Shown here: piece by piece, positions 10,485 through 30,462 of the stretch
Numbering within the stretch: position 1 is the stretch's first letter
Layout of the letters: the number at the start of each line of letters is the position of its first letter
Assembly (NCBI GenBank): GCA_003561825.1
Contig: PWVO01000017.1
Span: 1 to 30,512, forward strand
Length of the DNA: 30,512 nt
Origin: Candidatus Woesearchaeota archaeon
GTDB lineage: Archaea; Nanobdellota; Nanobdellia; Woesearchaeales; CG1-02-33-12
Reading direction: 5' to 3'
The notes under the pieces: model-generated
Told to the model about the DNA's origin: nothing
The model's database searches: none
What the model saw: the letters and a program-made list of their open reading frames with translations, nothing else
Made by a program: the position numbers and the translations under genes

Positions 10485-10537
10485 GGAGGAGTCCGATGGT
10501 ATGTCGGTATGGCGTTTTGATCGCTGTACCATCAATG

Positions 10538-10566
10538 CATCTCGCATAGTGTGAGATGTGTATAAT
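10538..10566 (+). promoter_or_regulatory. TATAAT promoter with an upstream palindrome, ahead of the Ubl operon
   Basis: CATCTCGCA-tag-TGTGAGATG (10538-10558), TATAAT (10561-10566), AAGGAGGT SD. Confidence 0.55.
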
Positions 10567-10594
10567 AACTTTAGATCTTAAGGAGGTCTAAAAA

Positions 10595-10840
10595 ATGATT
10601 ACGAATGAGAACGTTATCAGCTTGCGCCTGGTCGTCGCCGGCCAGGATGTCCGCACCGTCAGGATGGTCGAGGGCACGACCCTCGGTCAGCTCCTTCAGA
10701 ATCACACCGACAGGGATGGCCGCACGCTGTCCCCATCCTCCGGCCAGTTCTTCGTCAACGGAGCGTCCATTAATGAGGATTACGAGTTCGTAGACGATAA
10801 TCAGATGTTGATTGTCGTGGGCGCAGTTTACAACGGGTAA
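10595..10840 (+). CDS. Ubiquitin-like (beta-grasp, ThiS/MoaD-like) modifier ending in Gly
   Basis: 81 aa; GTTLGQLL…FFVNG…YEFVDDNQMLIVVGAVYNG*; first gene of an E2/JAB/E1 cluster. Confidence 0.8.
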   Translation: MITNENVISLRLVVAGQDVRTVRMVEGTTLGQLLQNHTDRDGRTLSPSSGQFFVNGASINEDYEFVDDNQMLIVVGAVYNG

Positions 10841-10871
10841 TCTCGTTGTAGGCTGTTAGTCTTATAACTCT

Positions 10872-10896
10872 GGGGAGGCCTCCTCCTGGCCTCCCC
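10872..10896 (+). other. GC-rich hairpin between Ubl and E2
   Basis: GGGGAGGCC-tcctcct-GGCCTCCCC, no U-tract. Confidence 0.6.
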
Positions 10897-10922
10897 TAAG
10901 GGTTGCAGAAAAGGGGAAAACC

Positions 10923-12269
10923 ATGATAAACAGATACACTATAAAAGGCCTGTATAATTTCATCAAACAAGACCAAGCAAGAGATATAGGTTTCTATCAA
11001 TCTCAGCATAGACGTGTGGCAAGAAACTACATCGAAAGAAACCCAGATTATTGCATCAAGATGAAGACCGGCTACTACGAACATGAAGAGATGGAAGAGA
11101 AATATCCATATATTGTATTCAGCAACAAAATTCCCGGAAATTATGGTAGTACTGAGCATTGCCTGATAATGATTACACCCGAAAGGGTCTACAGCGACTA
11201 TCAATCTTGCAGTGAATGTGCAGGAGATACAATTCTGATTGTAGACCCGAGTTCAAGAAGTTTTGTGACAGGCAAGGTAAGGCCTGATGTATTTTTACAA
11301 TCAGGTCTTAGGATTTCAGATAATGGAGCATTTATCCTTCTTGATGATGGACTGAGAGAGATATATAACTTAGTAGAAAACAAATACACATTTGACTATT
11401 ATGGATGGGAAGATTTATGCTTACAGATATCCAAGAAGTACAACAAGTGCGAGAGATCTCTAGCTATAGAGTTCATCGAGCACATGCATGGAAATGAAAG
11501 AAAGTCATGTCCTGAGATTTGTGGAGATGTAAAGTCTGTAAGCTCTGATGATTTTGATATTATATATACAACAAAAAGGAGTTTTGGATTTAAGAAAAGT
11601 TTGTATATATCGGGCGTGCTCAAGAGATTCAGGTCGGTTGGACAGTACGATATAGCAGTAGAAAAAGATGTGTTTATAAGACTGATATTTAATCTCGTAA
11701 GAGATGATTATTACTCAGGCCCTCAATATGATAATAACCCAAATGCATATAACGTATATGCGCATTCATACCCTCAGACAGAGATACACCCACACATTAC
11801 AAACGATAGCAGTTGCTTGGGTAGTGTCTGCATGGACAAGGGTTCTATAAAAGAGATGTTAATGGCAGGCCAAGATGAAGCGGCAGCAATAATAGCTGCT
11901 GGAAATCTAACTTATATCAATCCAAACGATTGGTACTCATCGGAGTTTATCATTCAGAATGGCTATTATATATGCGAGTACTGTGAAGGTATACAATCTA
12001 TAGAAGACGCATTTTATTGTGATCATTGCGGGTGTTACTTCTGCGAATCACATCCAACAACCGCTTGCAGCATCTGTGGCGACGAAAGATGTGAATATTG
12101 TGGTCATAGGGCATCATGCGAAAATTGTTACATAACTATATGCTATGACTGTGTAAACTCCGGCAGAACCGGCAGATGTGATGTATGTCAAGCTGTAATC
12201 TGTAACGACTGCTACGAAAGAGACAGGACTTGTAGATACTGTGAAACAAGGGAGGATGAAAATGAGTAA
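10923..12269 (+). CDS. E2-like (UBC-fold) conjugating protein fused to a C-terminal multi-CxxC zinc-finger array
   Basis: H289-PHITNDSSCLGSVC303-MD resembles HPN…GxVCLD; nine CxxC plus one CxxH in the last ~95 aa; operon context. Confidence 0.65.
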   Translation: MINRYTIKGLYNFIKQDQARDIGFYQSQHRRVARNYIERNPDYCIKMKTGYYEHEEMEEKYPYIVFSNKIPGNYGSTEHCLIMITPERVYSDYQSCSECAGDTILIVDPSSRSFVTGKVRPDVFLQSGLRISDNGAFILLDDGLREIYNLVENKYTFDYYGWEDLCLQISKKYNKCERSLAIEFIEHMHGNERKSCPEICGDVKSVSSDDFDIIYTTKRSFGFKKSLYISGVLKRFRSVGQYDIAVEKDVFIRLIFNLVRDDYYSGPQYDNNPNAYNVYAHSYPQTEIHPHITNDSSCLGSVCMDKGSIKEMLMAGQDEAAAIIAAGNLTYINPNDWYSSEFIIQNGYYICEYCEGIQSIEDAFYCDHCGCYFCESHPTTACSICGDERCEYCGHRASCENCYITICYDCVNSGRTGRCDVCQAVICNDCYERDRTCRYCETREDENE

Positions 12270-13182
12270 AATAGAAGATCTTATGAAAATGCTACTTGAA
12301 ATAATTGAGACAAGCAAGACAGTAAAAGAGAAAGAAGCAAAGGTTGTAAAGCCTCCTCCCAGAGAGGCTAATCCAGACGTAGGAGATAGAACACTAATCA
12401 TAAGCGATGAAGTGGTTAGAAGTCTCCTTACAGCTGCATATCTCGTTGGGGATATCGAGCTGAATGGACTTGGTTTGGTATCAGAGAATGACGGCGAGAT
12501 TCTCTGGGAGAAAGCATGGGTTCTCTCGGACATAGATGGATTAAAAGACAATGGCGAAAGAAGGCCGTCTGGGTCATCCGTTGCTGTAAAGATGGACCCG
12601 GAACAAATGGCGGTTAAGATTGCAGAAGTCGTAGAGATGGGAAGAAGCCCACGAGATTTAAGATTGTACTGGCATACACATGGGATCTGGTCAAGCTTCT
12701 TTTCGAGTACAGATCTAAAAGCAATTCAAGGGGAAGTAGAGTTTGCAGGGGGGAATGAAATCATCAACGTAGTTTTTGTTCCTGGCAGCTTTGATGCCAG
12801 GATAGATAGCGGTCTTGGGGATGATAAATCCGCCGAGACAATAGGAACCATAAAGATGGAGGGTGAAAATGAGAAATATAGAGTCGTTGGGAATGTTCAG
12901 TCGTCAAAGTTACATCTGTCAACCATCCAGACTGCCGGAAGTCAGTATGATTGGGGCCGGGCACCTGGGAAGCATGATAGCCTTTGGTCTCAGTCAGATT
13001 GGCGTCGGGGCCAAGACAACACAGGAGGAGAGTTCGCTGGTTGTCTCCTCGAGGAACTCGATGAATTGTGCCCAGACTGTGGAGGGTTCATCGAAGAAGT
13101 TGATATTGGGGAGTGGGGAAAGATCTGCTGCGACTGCGGCAGAATCATGGGTGGCGAGCTGGATGGAATCAAACTATTCTAA
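12262..13182 (+). CDS. JAB/MPN+ metalloprotease (deconjugase) with a C-terminal zinc ribbon
   Basis: WHTHGIWSSFFSSTD = HxH-x7-S-x2-D; upstream Glu in IELNG; GGAGG SD 6 nt before ATG 12262. Confidence 0.9.
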   Translation: MSKIEDLMKMLLEIIETSKTVKEKEAKVVKPPPREANPDVGDRTLIISDEVVRSLLTAAYLVGDIELNGLGLVSENDGEILWEKAWVLSDIDGLKDNGERRPSGSSVAVKMDPEQMAVKIAEVVEMGRSPRDLRLYWHTHGIWSSFFSSTDLKAIQGEVEFAGGNEIINVVFVPGSFDARIDSGLGDDKSAETIGTIKMEGENEKYRVVGNVQSSKLHLSTIQTAGSQYDWGRAPGKHDSLWSQSDWRRGQDNTGGEFAGCLLEELDELCPDCGGFIEEVDIGEWGKICCDCGRIMGGELDGIKLF

Positions 13183-13744
13183 TCTATTAGAAGCTATTAA
13201 GTCGTCATGCATTGTTATCTTTGACGATGACATAGTGAACTTGCACAATGTAGCAGCATCATACTATACACGAAAACAATCTATATTACAGATGCCAAAG
13301 GCGCAGGCAATGGTCGAGAACATGAATGCACTTATGGATGTAAATGTTCTCGGTATAAAAGCCAAGGTTCCATCAGGTTTACCGGTGTCGTATGCAGTAA
13401 AACCAGTGGTAATCATTAGTACAGATTCCAGGAGATCCAGGGTCCTCTTCTGGAGCCACGTCAAGAGAGAAGATGATGTTGAACTCCTTATAGATGCCAG
13501 GTCAGGTTGGGATGTAACATCTATCCATACATGCAAGATGGACGATGGTAGAAGCCGTCAGGCGTACAGTGATAGTCTAGAAGCAGAAGGCGGCAATATA
13601 CCATGTTCTGCTAGAGCAGTGGGTTATAACAGCATTGGTGTAGCTGCCAACGTAGCTGCAATTGTAAAGAGCTATGCTAATAACGAGACATTTCCAAGTT
13701 ACATAATGCAGGACTATAAAACATGGTCTAATATAATTGTGTAA
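12869..13744 (+). CDS. ThiF/E1-family activating enzyme with a 66-aa insertion
   Basis: FSRQ, IGAGHLGS, FDDDIVNLHN, IDARSG, candidate catalytic Cys in NIPCSAR; GGAGG at 12858-12862. Confidence 0.85.
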   Translation: MRNIESLGMFSRQSYICQPSRLPEVSMIGAGHLGSMIAFGLSQIGVGAKTTQEESSLVVSSRNSMNCAQTVEGSSKKLILGSGERSAATAAESWVASWMESNYSNLLEAIKSSCIVIFDDDIVNLHNVAASYYTRKQSILQMPKAQAMVENMNALMDVNVLGIKAKVPSGLPVSYAVKPVVIISTDSRRSRVLFWSHVKREDDVELLIDARSGWDVTSIHTCKMDDGRSRQAYSDSLEAEGGNIPCSARAVGYNSIGVAANVAAIVKSYANNETFPSYIMQDYKTWSNIIV

Positions 13745-13755
13745 GGAGAATAACA

Positions 13756-14379
13756 ATGGAAATCACAGCAGTTGCTTTGCACAAATGCGCCATTGTGCAT
13801 TACGGATTGAGGGCAGTATTAGAAGAGAAGTACGACTGTAACCTTCTAGGCGCTGTAAGTGCTGGTGAAGCTCAAATGCACATGAGAAGTTATGCATGTA
13901 ACATCATGTTCATAGAGCTTCCAGAATTCACAAGCAGTGTAGCAAGCTTTACATCTTCACTGCCTGTAATCTGTCTTTCTGACAGCTCGAAAGTAGATAT
14001 CCTGCAAGACGCGATTAGCCTTGGCGCATCAGGTTATTTACTTATGTCAGACGAGATAGATGAATACTATATAGTATTAGAATCGGCATTAAAAGGCAAA
14101 CTTAGAGCACGATCAGAGGACGTAAAAAGACTAATAAATAAGTTAGAAGAGAATCGGCGCGTGAGCACAGAAGCGTTATCAGATCTAACGTCACGAGAAG
14201 TAGATGTATTAGAGCTTCTCGTGCAAGGGAAAGATAACAAAGAGATAGCAGATGAGTTATCAATAGCGTATGGAACGGCAAGAAATAAAGTCTGGCAAAT
14301 ACTCTCTAAAACCCATCAACCCAATAGAACTGCTCTAGCACTGTGGGCAGTTGAAAACAACATAGTAGATAGAGAGTAA
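13756..14379 (+). CDS. NarL/LuxR-family regulator with a degenerate receiver domain
   Basis: LTSREVDVLELLVQGKDNKEIADELSIAYGTARN HTH; REC-like N-terminus lacking the phospho-Asp and the Lys. Confidence 0.85.
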   Translation: MEITAVALHKCAIVHYGLRAVLEEKYDCNLLGAVSAGEAQMHMRSYACNIMFIELPEFTSSVASFTSSLPVICLSDSSKVDILQDAISLGASGYLLMSDEIDEYYIVLESALKGKLRARSEDVKRLINKLEENRRVSTEALSDLTSREVDVLELLVQGKDNKEIADELSIAYGTARNKVWQILSKTHQPNRTALALWAVENNIVDRE

Positions 14380-14381
14380 GC

Positions 14382-15218
14382 ATGGAGAATGTTGACTTTG
14401 GTGGAGTAATCGGCCAGCAACAGGCCAAAAACCTTCTGGTTCGTGCTAAAGAGAATAGGATGAACATCTTATTCGTTGCACCACCAGGGTACGGAAAAAC
14501 TCTATTGGCTCGGAAATACTTAGAATCATTTAACTCATCCATTGTAGAAATAAACGGCACAGAGAAAATAAGCAATATAGTAGAGAAGATTAATAAAAAC
14601 TCTGACAAACCCATCTTGATAGATGAAGCACATAAGATGAGAGGGTCGGAAGCGATATATAAACATCTTGATGGAGAAGTTGAGAGAAGACCAACATTTG
14701 AAGATCTTACATTAGATATAACTGATATTGATCTAAGTATCATCTTTGCATTAGCTACTACTGACGAGGGCAGATTAACAGATGCTCTTGTTAGCAGATT
14801 AGTAAAAGTAGCATTAAGACCCTACAGTCATGATGACTTAGTAGAAATAGCTAAGCTAGAACACAAACACAAAAAAGATGTTTTAGCTGAAATAGCAACA
14901 TTAGCTAGAGGGAATCCAAGGAGGGTCAAGTTATTGTCAAAACTGCTTTCAGGTAGATCGCTTAAGAGTGGTCGAGATGTACAATCTCAGTTACAACTAC
15001 TGGGACTGCCAATGGGATTAGATGCAAGAGAAAGTAGGATGATGAAAATATTAGTGAGCAAGCCAAGAGGTATAAGTACTATAGCTGGTTTAATGTCAAC
15101 AGATTCTCATACAATTAGGATGATAGAAAGCGACCTCATACAGTCTGGGCTAGTAGAGGTTACATCGAAAGGTAGATCTCTTACAAGTGATGGCATCGAG
15201 GTCGCAAAGGAGTTGTGA
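14382..15218 (+). CDS. ruvB: RuvB-like AAA+ ATPase (compact)
   Basis: Walker A APPGYGKT, Walker B IDEAH, ATT, SR, RGNPR, GLD, winged-helix tail ESDLIQSGLVEVTSKGR. Confidence 0.75.
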   Translation: MENVDFGGVIGQQQAKNLLVRAKENRMNILFVAPPGYGKTLLARKYLESFNSSIVEINGTEKISNIVEKINKNSDKPILIDEAHKMRGSEAIYKHLDGEVERRPTFEDLTLDITDIDLSIIFALATTDEGRLTDALVSRLVKVALRPYSHDDLVEIAKLEHKHKKDVLAEIATLARGNPRRVKLLSKLLSGRSLKSGRDVQSQLQLLGLPMGLDARESRMMKILVSKPRGISTIAGLMSTDSHTIRMIESDLIQSGLVEVTSKGRSLTSDGIEVAKEL

Positions 15219-24623: not shown

Positions 24624-24895
24624 TTTACACTATAGGTTACGCAGAACATTACGAGAAACAATTTAAAGAAAGCGAAGCACAAGGCAAACCTCTCATAAAA
24701 ATAGGGCGCACCATAGATTACAATGGCGGGTCTGTCTGGCGCACACGCGAAGAAGCACAAAGCTACTTAGACGGACGGGGCATGCATGAATACTCTGTAT
24801 ACGGAGTCCTGGCTGATTGGGACAGGGATACAGAAGGAAACAAATATCATTCATTCAATAATTTATTAGTTAATTCGGAGTTAGTAAAGATTTAA
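24620..24895 (+). CDS. Hypothetical protein
   Basis: ATGA coupled. Confidence 0.7.
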   Translation: MIYTIGYAEHYEKQFKESEAQGKPLIKIGRTIDYNGGSVWRTREEAQSYLDGRGMHEYSVYGVLADWDRDTEGNKYHSFNNLLVNSELVKI

Positions 24896-27800
24896 TGTTA
24901 ACAGGAAACCAAAAAGAGGTATTTACAAGAAGATACGTTAGGAAAGACGCACAAGGAAATCCTATAGAAACAGTAGAAGATGTATTCCACAGAGTCGCAC
25001 TCAACGTAGGTATAGTAGAAAGACAGTGGCACGACGACAATGAAGTAGAAAAAACAATTAAAGACTTCGAGTCCATGCTATCCGACATGGAATTCCTCCC
25101 CAATTCCCCAACGTGGACAGGCGCAGGGACTCCACTAGGTTTACTTTCAGCATGCTTTGTGCTTCCAGTAGAAGACGACATGGGACGCAAGCGCGGTGGC
25201 ATCTTTGACACGCTTAAAGATATGGCATTAATATTCCAGACCGGAGGAGGTATAGGACTATCATTAAGCAAGCTACGACCAGATGGTGCATACATCAGCA
25301 CGTCAGGCGGTAAGGCTACAGGGCCAGTAGGATTTCTAAAAGTATTCGATAAAGCATCAGAAGTGATTTCGCAGGGAGGATGCTTAACACCAGATACTCT
25401 AGTATTTACTGATAAGGGCATGCTACGCCTTGACGAGATCATTCCTAACCCTAAAGAGGGATGGGGCAATCACAGTATAAAGGTTGCCACTGATGAAGGT
25501 GTAAAACGATCTCCAGCATTCTATAACAATGGTATATCCAAGACCCTCAAAGTTTACACCAATTCGGGTATCAGTATCGCGGGAACGCCAGACCACAAAG
25601 TCAAATTGATGACTAAAAACGGTCTCCTGTGGAAAGAGATAAAGCATCTGCAAAAGGGCGATTACATAGCGATAAAGCTGGGAGAGCACACAGGGCACAA
25701 GCAAGAGCTAGATCATCCAACTATAACTCACCACAACCAAATCGAGCCCACCTTCCCAAATACACTGAACAAAGACCTAGCATTCTTTCTAGGCTACTTA
25801 ACCGGAAATGGATTCGTCGCATCTAATGAAGGTGATTACAGAGTGGGTGTCACAGTTCCTCATAAATCATACCTAATGAAAGAGATGCCACGGCTTATAA
25901 CATCCCTGTTCAGCGTACCAGTCTATCGCAGTGTGGACAAGGGCAATAGCTCCACAACCCTTATCGTTCACAATCGTGCTCTCAAAGAGTTTCTTGAAAT
26001 GAATGACTTGGATAAAAAGGACAGTCTCACAGCCCGCATCCCCAAGAAGATACGCATGAGTCCAAAGAGTATCTTAGGTGTATACCTGCAAGGACTGTTT
26101 GAAGCTGACGGGTCTTTATGTCATGGATACCCACAGCTAAATACATCGTCACACAGACTTGCCAATGAGATAGCTACAATGCTAATTGGCCTCGGGTGCC
26201 CCGTAAACATCAGGGCTCGCCAGCCATCTAAAAACCGTTGGGGTGACAGTACATCCTATTTTGTTAGGCCGAAATCACACATTGGACTTAATTCTTACAG
26301 AAAGTATGTTCCCTGCCACAAAGAATCACGTTTTATGGCAGTCGAGGATCATAAGCCAGATCTCTCCAGAGAGCAGTCTTACCGCCTGCCATATCCGAAT
26401 CAGTGGATAGGTAAAGTCCTAAACCTGGTAACACGAAAAGAGTACCCACGTCTTAGAAAGAGTTTGCTGCGGTACAGAAGGGGCAGTAGAAACCTTACTG
26501 TATCTGCATATAAGTCGCTGTCGCAAGACTATGAGGTCTTTAGAAATAACGCAATGCCAGTAGATAATATCTGGTTTGTTGAGGTTACAAAAGTGGAGCC
26601 CGCTGGCGAGTCACTGACACTAGATCTGGAGGTTGAAGACAATCATACGTATTTAGCCAATGGCATCATAACACATAACCCTCGCCGGGGCGCTGGCATG
26701 GCAGTACTCCGTTACGACCATCCTGACATCTTAGATTTTATCACTTGCAAACAGTCCGAAAACGACATCACAAACTTTAACATTTCAGTAGCAGTAGACA
26801 ATGATTTCATGACAGCGGTTAAAGAAGACTTAGAGATAGCATTAATAAACCCCCAGGACGGTAAGGTCTGGGATAATATCAGTGCTAGATCTATAATGAA
26901 CGCTATAACCTCTAATGCTGTCAACAATGGCGAACCAGGGCTTTTATTTTTAGACAGAGCAAATGAAGACAACCCATGCCCGTCACTAGGCAGTTATCAT
27001 GCTACAAACCCTTGCGGTGAGCAGTTTCTCAAACCCTATCAAAACTGCTGCTTAGGTACAATCAACTTAGTCAAACATCTCGACTCGAACAACAAAATAA
27101 ATTACGAGAAACTAAACAGAACAATTAAGCTAGGAGTCCGCTTTCTCGACGATGTTATTGACGCTAACAAATACATCAAATCCATACCCGAACTAGAAGA
27201 GAAAGCAAAGGAAACACGCAGAATCGGCCTCGGTATCACAGGACTTGCAGACGTTCTTTACCTTAACAATATAAGATATGGCAGTGAAGAAGCTGTAAGT
27301 TTTATAACGAATTTAATGATGGATATAAGAGCTACAGCAATAGAGACGAGTGTTGAGTTAGCACAAGTACGAGGGCCATTTCCTGCATTTGAAGAAAGTA
27401 TATACGTAACAGATGAATGGTATAAAAACATCAACAAAAAAGGCCCTTTTGAATACTTAAGATCTCATTTTACGAAAATAGGAATCCGTAATGCCACACA
27501 GCTCACAATAGCCCCGACAGGAACGAGGTCAACTATCGCTGGTGTAGAAGGTTATGGATGCGAACCTGTATTTGCCCTTGCATACACCAGAATGCTAGTA
27601 GAACGAGAAGGCGACGTAGAACTCCAATATACTAGCCCATTGTTTAAGCAAGCATTAATTGATGAAGGCATAGAAGGAAATGAGTTAGAACGCATCCTCA
27701 ACGACGTTTCCAAGACTGGCAGCTGTCAAGGCGTAGAAGGCATACCTCAACACATCAAAGATGTTTATGTTGTATCACGCGATATAACTCCTAAAGAACA

Positions 27801-28500
27801 TGTAGACATGCAGGCTGCAGCACAATCGTGGATAGATAGCAGTATATCGAAGACTATCAACTGTCCCGAAGGTACAACAAAAGAAGATATAGAAGAAATA
27901 TTTAATTACGCTTGGCAAAAGAGATGCAAGGGGATTACCGTTTACGTAGCCAACTCGAGAGAAAAAACAGTGCTACAAACAAATAACGAAAAAGACGAAG
28001 GCCCCATAAATAACGTCGAAACACTATACGAACGTCCATTAGAGCTTACTGGAAAAACTATACGCCAACCAACACCATTAGGTACAGCTTTCGTTACACT
28101 AAACTACAATGAAGAAGACGAACCATTCGAGGTCTTCGTAAACATTGGTCGCGCAGGTTCTGACGTATCCGCTGTCGCCGAAGGACTTGGCCGACTAATA
28201 TCCCTTATCCTAAGAATCCCGCCAAACATGGATTCCAAGTCAAGACTCAAGCACGTCGTAGAACAGCTGAAAGGCATAGGCGGTGGAAACCCATTAGGAT
28301 TCGGCAAGAACCGCATCAGAAGCCTGCCTGATGGTGTAGCAGAGGTCTTAGGGAAACAACTAGGTATTATCGACTACAACGGTTGTGGGTGCGACGAGAC
28401 ATTAGAAACACTAGACCTTTGCCCAGAATGCGGCAACGCTTCACTAATAACATCAGAGGGATGTAGCCACTGTAAGCTATGCGGATTTAACAAGTGCTAA
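24895..28500 (+). CDS. nrdJ: Adenosylcobalamin-dependent (class II) ribonucleotide reductase with intein
   Basis: PNSPT, SACFV, TNPCGEQ, NCCLGTINL, IAPTG, ISKTIN, TSCPD-like C-terminal domain and CPECG…CKLC. Confidence 0.92.
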   Translation: MLTGNQKEVFTRRYVRKDAQGNPIETVEDVFHRVALNVGIVERQWHDDNEVEKTIKDFESMLSDMEFLPNSPTWTGAGTPLGLLSACFVLPVEDDMGRKRGGIFDTLKDMALIFQTGGGIGLSLSKLRPDGAYISTSGGKATGPVGFLKVFDKASEVISQGGCLTPDTLVFTDKGMLRLDEIIPNPKEGWGNHSIKVATDEGVKRSPAFYNNGISKTLKVYTNSGISIAGTPDHKVKLMTKNGLLWKEIKHLQKGDYIAIKLGEHTGHKQELDHPTITHHNQIEPTFPNTLNKDLAFFLGYLTGNGFVASNEGDYRVGVTVPHKSYLMKEMPRLITSLFSVPVYRSVDKGNSSTTLIVHNRALKEFLEMNDLDKKDSLTARIPKKIRMSPKSILGVYLQGLFEADGSLCHGYPQLNTSSHRLANEIATMLIGLGCPVNIRARQPSKNRWGDSTSYFVRPKSHIGLNSYRKYVPCHKESRFMAVEDHKPDLSREQSYRLPYPNQWIGKVLNLVTRKEYPRLRKSLLRYRRGSRNLTVSAYKSLSQDYEVFRNNAMPVDNIWFVEVTKVEPAGESLTLDLEVEDNHTYLANGIITHNPRRGAGMAVLRYDHPDILDFITCKQSENDITNFNISVAVDNDFMTAVKEDLEIALINPQDGKVWDNISARSIMNAITSNAVNNGEPGLLFLDRANEDNPCPSLGSYHATNPCGEQFLKPYQNCCLGTINLVKHLDSNNKINYEKLNRTIKLGVRFLDDVIDANKYIKSIPELEEKAKETRRIGLGITGLADVLYLNNIRYGSEEAVSFITNLMMDIRATAIETSVELAQVRGPFPAFEESIYVTDEWYKNINKKGPFEYLRSHFTKIGIRNATQLTIAPTGTRSTIAGVEGYGCEPVFALAYTRMLVEREGDVELQYTSPLFKQALIDEGIEGNELERILNDVSKTGSCQGVEGIPQHIKDVYVVSRDITPKEHVDMQAAAQSWIDSSISKTINCPEGTTKEDIEEIFNYAWQKRCKGITVYVANSREKTVLQTNNEKDEGPINNVETLYERPLELTGKTIRQPTPLGTAFVTLNYNEEDEPFEVFVNIGRAGSDVSAVAEGLGRLISLILRIPPNMDSKSRLKHVVEQLKGIGGGNPLGFGKNRIRSLPDGVAEVLGKQLGIIDYNGCGCDETLETLDLCPECGNASLITSEGCSHCKLCGFNKC
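25381..26679 (+). mobile_element. Intein (433 aa) with a LAGLIDADG endonuclease; +1 residue is Pro
   Basis: QGG|CLTPDT…YLANGIITHN|PRRGA; LAGLIDADG-like blocks FFLGYLTGNG and YLQGLFEADG. Confidence 0.93.
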
Positions 28501-30338: not shown

Positions 30339-30462
30339 CCCAGGGTAGCTCAGTTGGGAGAGCGCTAAACCCCGATTATCACTAATTACCTAAAATGGGT
30401 CGCAGATGATCGGTTATCCTATGTGGAAGGAGAGGTCGTGGGTTCGAGTCCCACCCCTGGGT
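30339..30462 (+). ncRNA. tRNA-like RNA 2 with a 51-nt structured insertion in the anticodon stem (Y-RNA/YrlA-like tRNA mimic)
   Basis: CCCAGGG/CCCTGGG acceptor, GCTC/GAGC D arm, GTGGG-TTCGAGT-CCCAC T arm; removing 30367-30417 gives a 73-nt cloverleaf with a GTG anticodon loop. Confidence 0.7.

Follow-up and report, generated by a model that had tools for sequence, protein, structure and literature searches.

Organization of the Ubl, E2, JAB and E1 genes

The window, meaning the whole stretch of 30,512 nt that was analysed, carries an operon encoding a putative ubiquitin-like protein (Ubl), an E2-like protein, a JAB/JAMM peptidase and an E1-like adenylating enzyme (Table 1), and its genomic surroundings are phage-like rather than those of a defence island. 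The Ubl matched no Pfam family; its homologs in L004, L005, L011, L013 and L006, five related loci, lie 5' of the E2 gene and all end in NG. The motif HPH-x(4-10)-C(L/I), which we take to resemble the UBC HPN…C motif, is kept in the E2 equivalents of L004, L005, L006, L011, L015 and L016, and the E2-like protein of the window had no match in Pfam, PHROG or PADLOC. PADLOC run on the four operon proteins returned nothing above noise.

The last two genes overlap by 314 nt (12869-13182), E1 being read in the +1 frame relative to JAB in the window sequence. The coordinates that a first-pass annotation had given for JAB, E1, the overlap and the insert were all re-derived and are correct. In the E1 frame the order is MIGAGHLGSMIAFGLSQIGVG, then 66 residues (13010-13207), then CIVIFDDD; the splitting of the Rossmann motif that had been described, with IGAGHLGS…QIGVG upstream and CIVIFDDD downstream of the insert, is thus seen at the same positions. 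The JAB frame reads as a Trp/Gly-rich linker through the E1 N-terminal segment (region A) and displays, further downstream, the Cys motifs CPDC (13069-13080) and CCDC/CDCG (13126-13137). A GGAG(G) sequence lies 6-12 nt 5' of the E1 ATG in 9/9 loci with the overlap (the window and eight relatives, described below), and the E1 Shine-Dalgarno sites of these nine loci match those of other operon genes in quality. Separate initiation of E1 from this internal start is plausible from the sequence.

The E1 start also forms part of a repeat. The sequence GGAGGNTGAAAATGAG, with a 16-nt core, occurs exactly twice in the window (at 12251 and 12858) versus 0.01 expected from shuffles, and the E2/JAB and JAB/E1 junctions are identical at 22 of 25 nt. 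This likeness, read earlier as a mark of the loss of the JAB stop codon, is real as a repeat but does not hold as such a mark: the read-through is ancient and common to all nine loci while the 25-nt likeness is specific to the window, and the repeat is therefore not a relic of stop loss. It more likely reflects a common design of Shine-Dalgarno sequence, purine-rich spacer and ATG, or local gene conversion.

Table 1. Features of the operon and of the JAB/E1 overlap (positions in the window).
Feature	Position	Strand	Details
Putative ubiquitin-like protein (Ubl) gene	10595..10840	+	81 aa; ends YNG-stop; first operon gene
E2-like protein gene	10923..12269	+	448 aa; Cys-rich C-terminal region
E2/JAB junction	12251..12275	+	25 nt; nearly repeats the JAB/E1 junction (12858-12882)
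JAB/JAMM peptidase gene	12262..13182	+	306 aa; MPN core followed by a disordered linker and, at the C-terminus, a zinc ribbon; ATG 12262, stop TAA 13180-13182
E1 translation start within the JAB frame	12858..12871	+	GGAGG, 7-nt spacer, ATG
E1-like adenylating enzyme gene	12869..13744	+	291 aa; ~225-aa ThiF-type core and 66-aa insert; ATG 12869, stop at 13744
Region A, E1 N-terminus	12869..13009	+	RQ motif, strand 1, GxGxxG, helix 1
66-codon in-frame E1 insert	13010..13207	+	Between helix 1 (…QIGVG) and strand 2 (CIVIFDDD)
JAB C4 zinc ribbon and C-terminal tail	13060..13179	+	Residues 267-306; Cys codons 13069, 13078, 13126, 13135
Stretch kept in both frames	13147..13182	+	JAB GGELDGIKLF-stop; E1 WVASWMESNYS

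Predicted structures of the JAB and E1 proteins

The AF2 core of JAB (pLDDT 64-90) displays an MPN fold, with Foldseek matches to Rpn11, CSN5 and Mov34 at E 7e-9 and probability 1.0. The segment HTHGIWSSFFSSTD fits HxHx7Sx2D, an upstream Glu is also present in the window JAB, and the JAMM motif LRLYWH(T/F)H…S..D is conserved in full-length JAB homologs; the Pfam Prok-JAB match scores 18 bits (E 0.0027), below the 25-bit cut-off. The linker, residues 208-266, is modelled at a pLDDT of ~28. In the C-terminal ribbon the spacing CPDC-x15-CDCG fits two CxxC knuckles 11-20 residues apart, and the four Cys are invariant across the 7 JABs that were aligned and also occur in L011, L013 and L015. This conservation bears out the earlier proposal of a zinc ribbon written in the JAB frame inside the in-frame E1 insert. 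The AF2 model of the ribbon, built from 7 sequences, contains three short strands at moderate confidence (pLDDT ~67), and Pfam searches of the JAB tails gave sub-threshold zinc-ribbon matches only (Zn_ribbon_19, Zn_Ribbon_Prim, Zn_ribbon_3, RUBY_RBDX and others).

The E1 protein was modelled at a pLDDT of 88, and its top Foldseek matches are ThiF (1zud/1zfn), MoeB (1jw9), Atg7, UBA3 and UBA5 (probability 1.0), with a TM of 0.77 normalised to ThiF. Across 77 members of the E1 family the residues G29, G31, G34, D119, D121, N127, K144, D186, R191 and C246 are invariant, while R12 and Q13 come close to invariance; all of these except C246 we presumptively assign to the ATP site via MoeB and ThiF. 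By modelled fold and ATP-site residues, E1 is predicted to be a ThiF-type adenylating enzyme. The Pfam ThiF family PF00899 scores 22.3 bits against the window E1, under the cut-off of 28.1, and the aligned part lies entirely after the insert; the insert-free proteins P0011, P0014 and P0015 carry PF00899, and their E values against the E1 profile range from 1e-33 to 2e-38.

The insert is rich in Ser and Thr (29% versus 14% in the rest of E1). Residues 21-47 and from 114 onwards exceed a pLDDT of 90, residues 48-90 fall to 47-70 and are also unconserved, and residues 91-113, the last part of the insert, reach 85-88 and are conserved in the E1 frame, with Trp-94 invariant in five close loci. Taken together with the JAB model, this suggests that the folded parts of one protein are mostly disordered in the other. 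An intein as the source of the insert was dropped, the segment being far too short and variable, with no Hint motifs seen by eye.

Relatives of the locus and constraint on the two frames

The two-frame architecture is found in eight further independent assemblies (L001-L005, L011, L013 and L015), which with the window make up the nine overlap loci; the relatives are metagenomic contigs throughout, from Logan, JGI and ENA source projects. The overlap extends over 320-869 nt in the eight relatives (314-869 nt including the window), its offset is +1 in 9/9, and E1 identity among the loci falls to about 33%. The inserts of the relatives range from 43 to 241 codons and the E1 frame remains open and in phase across all of them, while the JAB frame runs without a stop from the MPN core to the ribbon in 9/9 loci. 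This layout, common to nine divergent loci, argues that the JAB/E1 overlap is real and old and not an artefact. The longest insert, of 241 residues, belongs to L015, whose JAB carries three zinc ribbons; Tandem Repeats Finder detected no nucleotide-level repeat among the three, which points to an old triplication. A loop of 241 residues within a Rossmann fold is unusual, which weighs against the reading of the overlap given below. Other searches were less productive: blastn in distant mode with 10500-13800 against a phage collection gave no match, scanning of viral contigs with the E1 protein and two alignments gave no relatives, a first metagenome scan gave none, and a second gave the insert-free L016 and the fragment L017 only.

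Over 100 further small E1s in the family are without the insert. The E1 has 690 relatives at E below 1e-10. Of the best 150 matches most are 215-230 aa long and have strand 2 near residue 45, and the insert was absent in 12/12 insert-free relatives aligned. Insert-free E1s of ~215-230 aa are thus the norm and dominate the family, and the insert is therefore derived, which answers the question raised with the first-pass annotation of whether relatives lack it. Some E1 matches are longer, and P0038, P0053 and P0157 were considered as JAB-E1 fusions and rejected, the additional length corresponding to tandem ThiF domains. The insert-free small E1s P0011 (in L006) and P0013 (in L016) are 29-34% identical to the window E1 and similarly belong to clusters of Ubl, Cys-rich E2, JAB and E1 on phage-like contigs. 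L006 differs in its gene order, E2-E1-JAB. In L016 the order is JAB-E1 and the two genes overlap by only 8 nt, in the same +1 frame; judged from sequence, this junction looks like an ancestral-like state, and it is the one that the earlier idea of JAB stop loss as the origin of the overlap predicts for the ancestor. In the E1 tree the overlap loci group together with one insert-free row, P0022 (SH-aLRT 91), and the overlap may have a single origin.

Over 1,249 overlap codons in the nine loci there are 0 stops in the JAB frame, 0 in the E1 frame and 59 in the third frame, and both frames are thus truly kept open. When JAB codons were resampled synonymously and the openness of the E1 frame was scored per locus, the probability of an open E1 frame given the JAB protein was 0.0008-0.39, with a product of ~3e-14 that is only a rough guide because the loci are related. 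The reverse resampling test gave 2e-5 for region A. In the GC-richer loci the E1 frame is open by chance with P 0.24-0.39, so that the statistics rest on the pooling of related loci.

The constraint is distributed unevenly between the frames. In region A the mean pairwise identity is 52% (z 19) in the E1 frame and 28% (z 5) in the JAB frame, and the GxGHLGSM and RQ motifs are invariant in the E1 frame in loci down to 33% identity. No extra synonymous constraint was detected in region A, where E1 third-position identity is 0.36 versus 0.38 elsewhere in E1; a strict dual constraint on the same codons of this region was rejected, its third positions being no more constrained than those in the rest of E1. 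The sequences compared are saturated at synonymous sites. In the zinc-ribbon region pairwise conservation is slightly higher in the JAB frame (27%, z 4.8) than in the E1 frame (24%, z 2.9); what speaks for the JAB frame is the invariance of the Cys together with a small number of other columns. Constraint in both frames at once is confined to ~10 codons at 13147-13182, where the window, L001 and L003 have near-identical codons, third positions included as well as the first two (CTG GAY GGC GAG YTG GAW GGA); the second Trp of the E1 stretch is broken in L004. Over most of the overlap, as the alignments read, one frame is constrained per sub-region and the other is merely kept open. The earlier claim of dual coding therefore stands for the openness of both frames but not for simultaneous constraint over most of the overlap, and the comparison of homologues that it had called for finds invariant E1-frame motifs in region A, invariant JAB-frame Cys in the insert and a dual signal only at 13147-13182.

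Interleaved translation, its alternatives and known systems

Together, the sequence comparisons indicate that JAB and E1 are probably two separately initiated proteins encoded in an interleaved, same-strand, out-of-phase overlap. Translation starting at 12262 would produce JAB, with its MPN/JAMM core, a disordered linker of ~60 residues and the C4 zinc ribbon, the linker being encoded by the E1 N-terminal coding DNA read one base out of frame. Translation starting at GGAGG-N7-ATG (12869) would produce E1, with strand 1, GxGxxG, helix 1, the 66-residue loop and then strand 2, with which the remainder of the ThiF-type fold begins. The E1 loop would mostly correspond to the zinc-ribbon DNA in the +1 frame, and is Ser/Thr-rich and predicted to be largely disordered. 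In the ancestor the order would have been JAB-E1, with JAB ending just a few bases into E1 as it does in L016; the JAB stop would then have been lost, and zinc-ribbon DNA would have arisen or been inserted in the loop-coding part of E1. This loop site is on the side of the Rossmann fold that faces away from ATP and would thus tolerate insertions, and later changes would have had to keep both frames open, so that a longer JAB tail brings a longer E1 loop, as in L015. The architecture in the sequence, its conservation, the ThiF-like and MPN folds of the models and the lack of the insert in relatives are shown by the data; we infer that both products are made, that the events took this order and that the loop of E1 is carried along passively.

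A bolder version, which we hold only tentatively and consider rather doubtful, is that the zinc ribbon was born de novo by overprinting in a growing E1 loop and that the interleaving now constitutes a genetic lock between JAB and E1. If true, a folded metal-binding domain would have been created by overprinting and later triplicated in L015, and the lock would force joint inheritance and nearby translation of JAB and E1 from the same mRNA stretch, functionally replacing the covalent JAB-E1 fusion of Bub systems.

The first-pass annotation had also raised an excised RNA or a recoding event, by which the 198 nt would be skipped (through bypass, an intron or an RNA element) or frameshifting would generate hybrids (JAB-E1, or the E1 N-terminus joined to the ribbon). 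The frames are one base apart in 9/9 loci, as frameshifting would have it, and the BubCD JAB-E1 fusions of Type I Bub (PMC11601596) are a precedent for a fused product. However, neither skipping nor splicing would require E1 to be open and in phase through the insert, and in nine loci it is so across 43-241 codons; no E1-to-JAB slippery heptamer was found in the overlap loci, none being conserved in position, and there are no homopolymer runs. With no Rfam family in the region, and E1 provided with its own Shine-Dalgarno sequence and ATG in every locus, these alternatives find no support and are improbable.

Similarly improbable is that only the E1 frame is functional past 12869, the JAB extension being a tolerated read-through tail and the insert a native E1 loop. 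The similar conservation of the insert in both frames would agree with this, as would the conserved and confidently modelled E1 residues 91-113, but the unconserved residues 48-90 with their low pLDDT would not. Neither would the JAB frame itself, where no stop interrupts any locus from the MPN core to the ribbon and where the Cys of CxxC…CxxC are invariant in 7/7 JABs and recur in three that are more distant, with the whole unit triplicated in L015.

The reverse, that the overlap functions in the JAB frame alone, that the real E1 has 193 aa from 13163 and that the GxGxxG segment is a decaying remnant, is very improbable. It is what the gene callers imply, since they give an E1 of 193 aa from 13163 in the window (P0001) and E1s shortened to 142-216 aa in the window, L003, L004, L005, L011, L013, L015 and one more contig. 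P0001 is without R12, Q13, G29, G31 and G34 of the E1 family, and a ThiF-type enzyme requires its nucleotide-binding loop for activity, so that the short form should be inactive; in addition, the downstream Met used for it is not conserved among the loci, and GxGHLGSM and RQ are invariant in the E1 frame while the same bases are poorly conserved in the JAB frame. An assembly error, chimera or sequencing frameshift is extremely improbable, and, although the window is a single metagenome-bin contig, no sign of one was found and the same architecture in eight independent loci from different projects effectively excludes this objection to the earlier reading.

The separately initiated, interleaved genes would thus represent a deeply conserved long gene overlap of unusual geometry in an apparent dsDNA phage. 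The geometry shows how two enzymes can share DNA, a disordered segment of each lying over most of the folded segment of the other, and it offers a natural experiment on the tolerance of the Rossmann fold to insertion, with loops of 43-241 residues between helix 1 and strand 2. It also implies that routine annotation is wrong on these loci, where gene callers remove the ATP-binding loop of E1 and the enzyme consequently looks broken or escapes recognition. The loci further highlight phage-like contigs that carry a family of complete operons of the Ubl / E2 / JAB / E1 type, whose candidate roles are counter-defence or the modification of proteins of the host or the virion.

In content and order (Ubl, E2, JAB/JAMM peptidase, E1) the operon resembles BilABCD (bioRxiv 10.1101/2023.09.26.559546; PMC11601596). 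In contrast, the window E1 is a single adenylation domain, with a ~225-aa core and the insert, and departs from the BilD-type architecture (PMC11601596); neither of these papers describes a gene overlap in BilABCD. In Type I Bub operons BubCD is an in-frame JAB-E1 fusion (PMC11601596), and the window operon is similar in that JAB directly precedes a single-domain E1 of the homodimer type and is linked to it genetically. Unlike in Type I Bub, JAB and E1 of the window are in different frames with separate starts, and Ubl and E2 are separate genes; with neither a BubCD-type JAB-E1 fusion nor a BubAB-type Ubl-E2 fusion, membership of Type I Bub was rejected. Literature searches gave no description of these Ubl / E2 / JAB / E1 operons on phage-like contigs.

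Out-of-phase same-strand overlaps produced by overprinting are well known in viruses, as in the genes of phiX174 and in lambda Rz/Rz1. Viral overlapping genes and overprinting have been reviewed (PMC8227390), and overlapping regions are generally enriched in predicted disorder (bioRxiv 10.1101/229690). The JAB/E1 overlap is alike in that one DNA stretch read in two frames would give two proteins, the overlap is rich in disorder and an origin by stop loss or overprinting fits. It differs from typical viral overprinting in that both of the interleaved partners are conserved enzymes and neither is small, novel and accessory. For a dsDNA phage 314-869 nt is a long overlap, and it persists among loci down to about 33% identity. 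The essential N-terminus of E1, the downstream gene, is encoded 5' of the C-terminal domain of JAB, the upstream one, and through this interleaving each protein would carry the domain of the other as an out-of-frame linker.

The JAB/E1 overlap in the window and in relatives

Four genes at 10595-13744 of the window lie on one strand and encode Ubl-like, E2-like, JAB and E1 proteins (see table). The frame of E1 is +1 and its start displays a GGAGG-N7-ATG. The JAB gene runs 314 nt into E1, as the first-pass annotation had described. As also described there, the Rossmann motif of E1 is split into QIGVG and CIVIFDDD by a 66-codon insert, and within this insert the JAB frame reads CPDC…CDCG, the putative zinc ribbon of the JAB tail. 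Homology searches with E1 and JAB returned few relatives, and examination of their DNA reveals the same arrangement in eight independent loci from separate sequencing projects (L001-L005, L011, L013 and L015), with E1 identities to the window from 55% down to 33%; an assembly artefact, for which a check had been proposed, is thus excluded. In all eight loci JAB continues over the E1 start, E1 lies at +1 and both frames are open along an overlap of 320-869 nt. Over 1,249 overlap codons no stop occurs in either the JAB or the E1 frame, and 59 occur in the third frame. When the JAB protein sequence was fixed and its codons were redrawn according to local usage, P for an open E1 frame was 0.0008-0.39 per locus (product ~3e-14); the reverse test, in which the JAB frame is examined across the E1 N-terminus, yields ~2e-5. 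Both products overstate the independence of these related loci. The insert is near-unalignable in the E1 frame (24% identity) and stop avoidance has thus been tested repeatedly. The coupling of JAB tail and E1 insert appears clearest in L015, where the tail carries three zinc ribbons and an insert of 241 residues is open throughout. In L005 and L013 the JAB tail extends 100-130 nt beyond the insert, over the DNA of E1 strand 2 and helix 2, and the overlap is therefore not limited to the insert. Antisense ORFs of 60-305 aa, open over the overlap in three loci, probably result indirectly from base composition and from the avoidance of stops in the two sense frames.

Coordinates of operon genes and associated features in the window and in loci of relatives
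Feature	Sequence	Coordinates	Strand	Description
Ubl-like protein	window			81 aa; C-terminal YNG; first of the four genes
E2-like protein	window	10923-12269	+	448 aa; HPH…C motif, Cys-rich C-terminus
E2-like protein	L004	3357-4664
E2-like protein	L005	2441-3709
E2-like protein	L006	3418-4956
E2-like protein	L016	1474-2811
JAB/JAMM peptidase	window	12262-13182		306 aa
ThiF-type E1	window	12869-13744		291 aa
E1 insert	window	13010-13207
CPDC…CDCG, JAB frame	window	13069-13137
JAB tail beyond insert	L005	4701-4805
JAB tail beyond insert	L013	3997-4125
Antisense ORF	window	12990-13172	-
Antisense ORF	L011	2962-3879	-
Antisense ORF	L015	3118-3855	-
LuxR/GerE-type regulator, then RuvB-like protein	window	13756-15218	+	downstream of E1
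LuxR/GerE-type regulator and RuvB-like protein	L004	6172-7606		downstream of E1
LuxR/GerE-type regulator	L001	956-1859		contig end cuts next gene
LuxR/GerE-type regulator	L003	1783-2818		contig end cuts next gene
IS605 OrfB / Cas12f-like TnpB	L015	90-1181	-	directly upstream of E2
Acb5 family (PF26761)	L006/L007	7842-8105
Ribonucleotide reductase large subunit	window	24895-28500	+	1,201 aa
Rfam tRNA match	window	30339-30462	+	43.5 bits

Constraint and predicted structure in the two frames

The dual coding claimed at first pass stands in that both frames are kept open; double constraint is suggested only at 13147-13182, and the segment encoding the E1 N-terminus (12869-13009) is constrained in the E1 frame alone. 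Mean identity in this segment is 52% in the E1 frame (z 19) versus 28% in the JAB frame, the latter a by-product, and R12, Q13, G29, G31 and G34 of E1 are invariant or nearly so among 77 family members. E1 third positions are equally free here and in non-overlapping E1 (0.36 versus 0.38), and the JAB frame is thus only kept open. Within the insert the JAB frame displays four invariant Cys and an invariant L300, with I282 conserved in most sequences, and the E1 frame displays no conservation as far as ~residue 86. Both frames show conservation over the final ~10 codons of JAB (13147-13182; JAB GELxG.xLF, E1 W.ASW.E..YS), with codons near-identical in three loci, and we suggest true double constraint at this place alone.

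The AF2 model of E1, from a 77-sequence alignment, resembles ThiF, MoeB, Atg7 and UBA5 (mean pLDDT 88). Strand 1, the GxGxxG loop, helix 1 and residue 114 onwards exceed 90, and the insert reaches 47-70 at residues 48-90 and 85-88 at residues 91-113. E1 inserts contain 29% Ser/Thr versus 13% in the core, and hydrophobic residues are scarce. The JAB model, from 7 sequences, displays an MPN core resembling Rpn11 and CSN5, a linker (residues 208-266) with pLDDT of ~28 and, at the C-terminus, a small unit of three strands with pLDDT of ~67. According to these pLDDT profiles, the folded part of one protein would lie mostly over the disordered part of the other, with the exception of 13147-13182. 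This alternation fits the general disorder richness of overlapping regions described in bioRxiv 10.1101/229690.

Translation and origin of the overlap

The simplest reading of these sequences is that JAB and E1 would be two independently initiated proteins. A Shine-Dalgarno site and ATG for E1 are present in every overlap locus, equal in quality to those of other operon genes, and dual coding is a probable explanation of the arrangement. The production of mature E1 or hybrid products via skipping, splicing or frameshifting is highly improbable, since an open in-phase E1 frame would then be needless; the excised RNA element and recoding event offered at first pass are likewise not supported, and the overlap region contains neither a conserved slippery sequence or homopolymer run nor a match to an Rfam family. 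The short E1 of gene callers (193 aa in the window, 142-216 aa elsewhere), which lacks the nucleotide-binding loop, could not be the functional product and was rejected.

Among 1.84 billion representative proteins, searching with a profile identified 1,855 E1 relatives (690 with E < 1e-10), the best 150 being mostly 215-230 aa long with strand 2 from ~residue 45. The insert site holds 0 to ~4 residues in 12 of 12 aligned insert-free relatives versus 43-241 in the overlap clade, which answers the earlier question of whether relatives lack the insert. An E1 tree built after removal of the insert places all nine overlap loci in one cluster that also includes a single insert-free sequence (SH-aLRT 91). 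The cluster lies within the insert-free relatives, and the overlap loci could share a single origin. Insert-free contig L006 displays the order Ubl, E2, E1, JAB, with a JAB of 685 aa without the ribbon. In insert-free L016 (E2, JAB, E1) the JAB stop lies 8 nt past the E1 start in the same +1 phase; this junction looks like the state expected prior to stop loss, which favours the proposed extension of JAB over E1. The E2/JAB and JAB/E1 junctions of the window are near-identical at 22 of 25 nt, with a 16-nt core present twice versus 0.01 expected. The similarity is real, but JAB read-through is common to all nine loci, otherwise only 33-55% identical in E1, and the repeat is thus not the fossil of stop loss that had been supposed. 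The two junctions more likely owe their similarity to a shared design for translation initiation or to local gene conversion; the E2/JAB junction of L004 likewise reads GGAGG-N6-ATGAG. The original observation is thus confirmed, and its interpretation supported apart from the junction relic and the constraint in both frames.

Operon setting and relation to known systems

The E2-like proteins display a common HPH…C(L/I) motif, which we take to resemble the UBC HPN/Cys active site, and numerous C-terminal CxxC pairs in a region that is possibly RING/IBR-like; they matched no family in Pfam, PHROG or PADLOC. The LuxR/GerE-type regulator and RuvB-like AAA+/winged-helix protein downstream of E1 may belong to the Ubl/E2/JAB/E1 module. 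In L015 the TnpB gene occupies the place of the Ubl gene in other loci, and no Ubl was seen in that locus. In L006/L007 the Acb5-family gene adjoins the Ubl/E2/E1/JAB cluster, with SSB and DnaB also on the contig; Acb5 is, by its name, presumably an anti-CBASS family, which would hint at a phage counter-defence neighbourhood.

The window is an entire contig from a metagenome bin of 1.1 Mb, and its ribonucleotide reductase, HNH endonuclease, DNA methyltransferases and RNA ligase match phage families. PHROG matches to ribonucleotide reductase cover residues 9-168 and 578-1201 of the large subunit. The middle matches a family of unknown function and a segment of a terminase family, which suggests an intein or other insertion. 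The Rfam tRNA match, with 71 model positions over 124 nt, could represent a tRNA that carries an intron or a long insertion; ARAGORN found no tRNA in the window.

PADLOC gave no match above noise for the four operon proteins, and the literature searched contains no description of this arrangement or phage operon family, an absence that is no proof of novelty. The gene content and order match those of BilABCD (PMC11601596; bioRxiv 10.1101/2023.09.26.559546), with a different E1 architecture in the window. In type I Bub operons JAB and E1 are fused in frame (BubCD; PMC11601596), whereas here they are linked by overlapping out of frame. The JAB/E1 overlap belongs to viral overprinting, a known class of gene overlaps (PMC8227390), in which it is unusual for interleaving two conserved enzymes and for being long and old.
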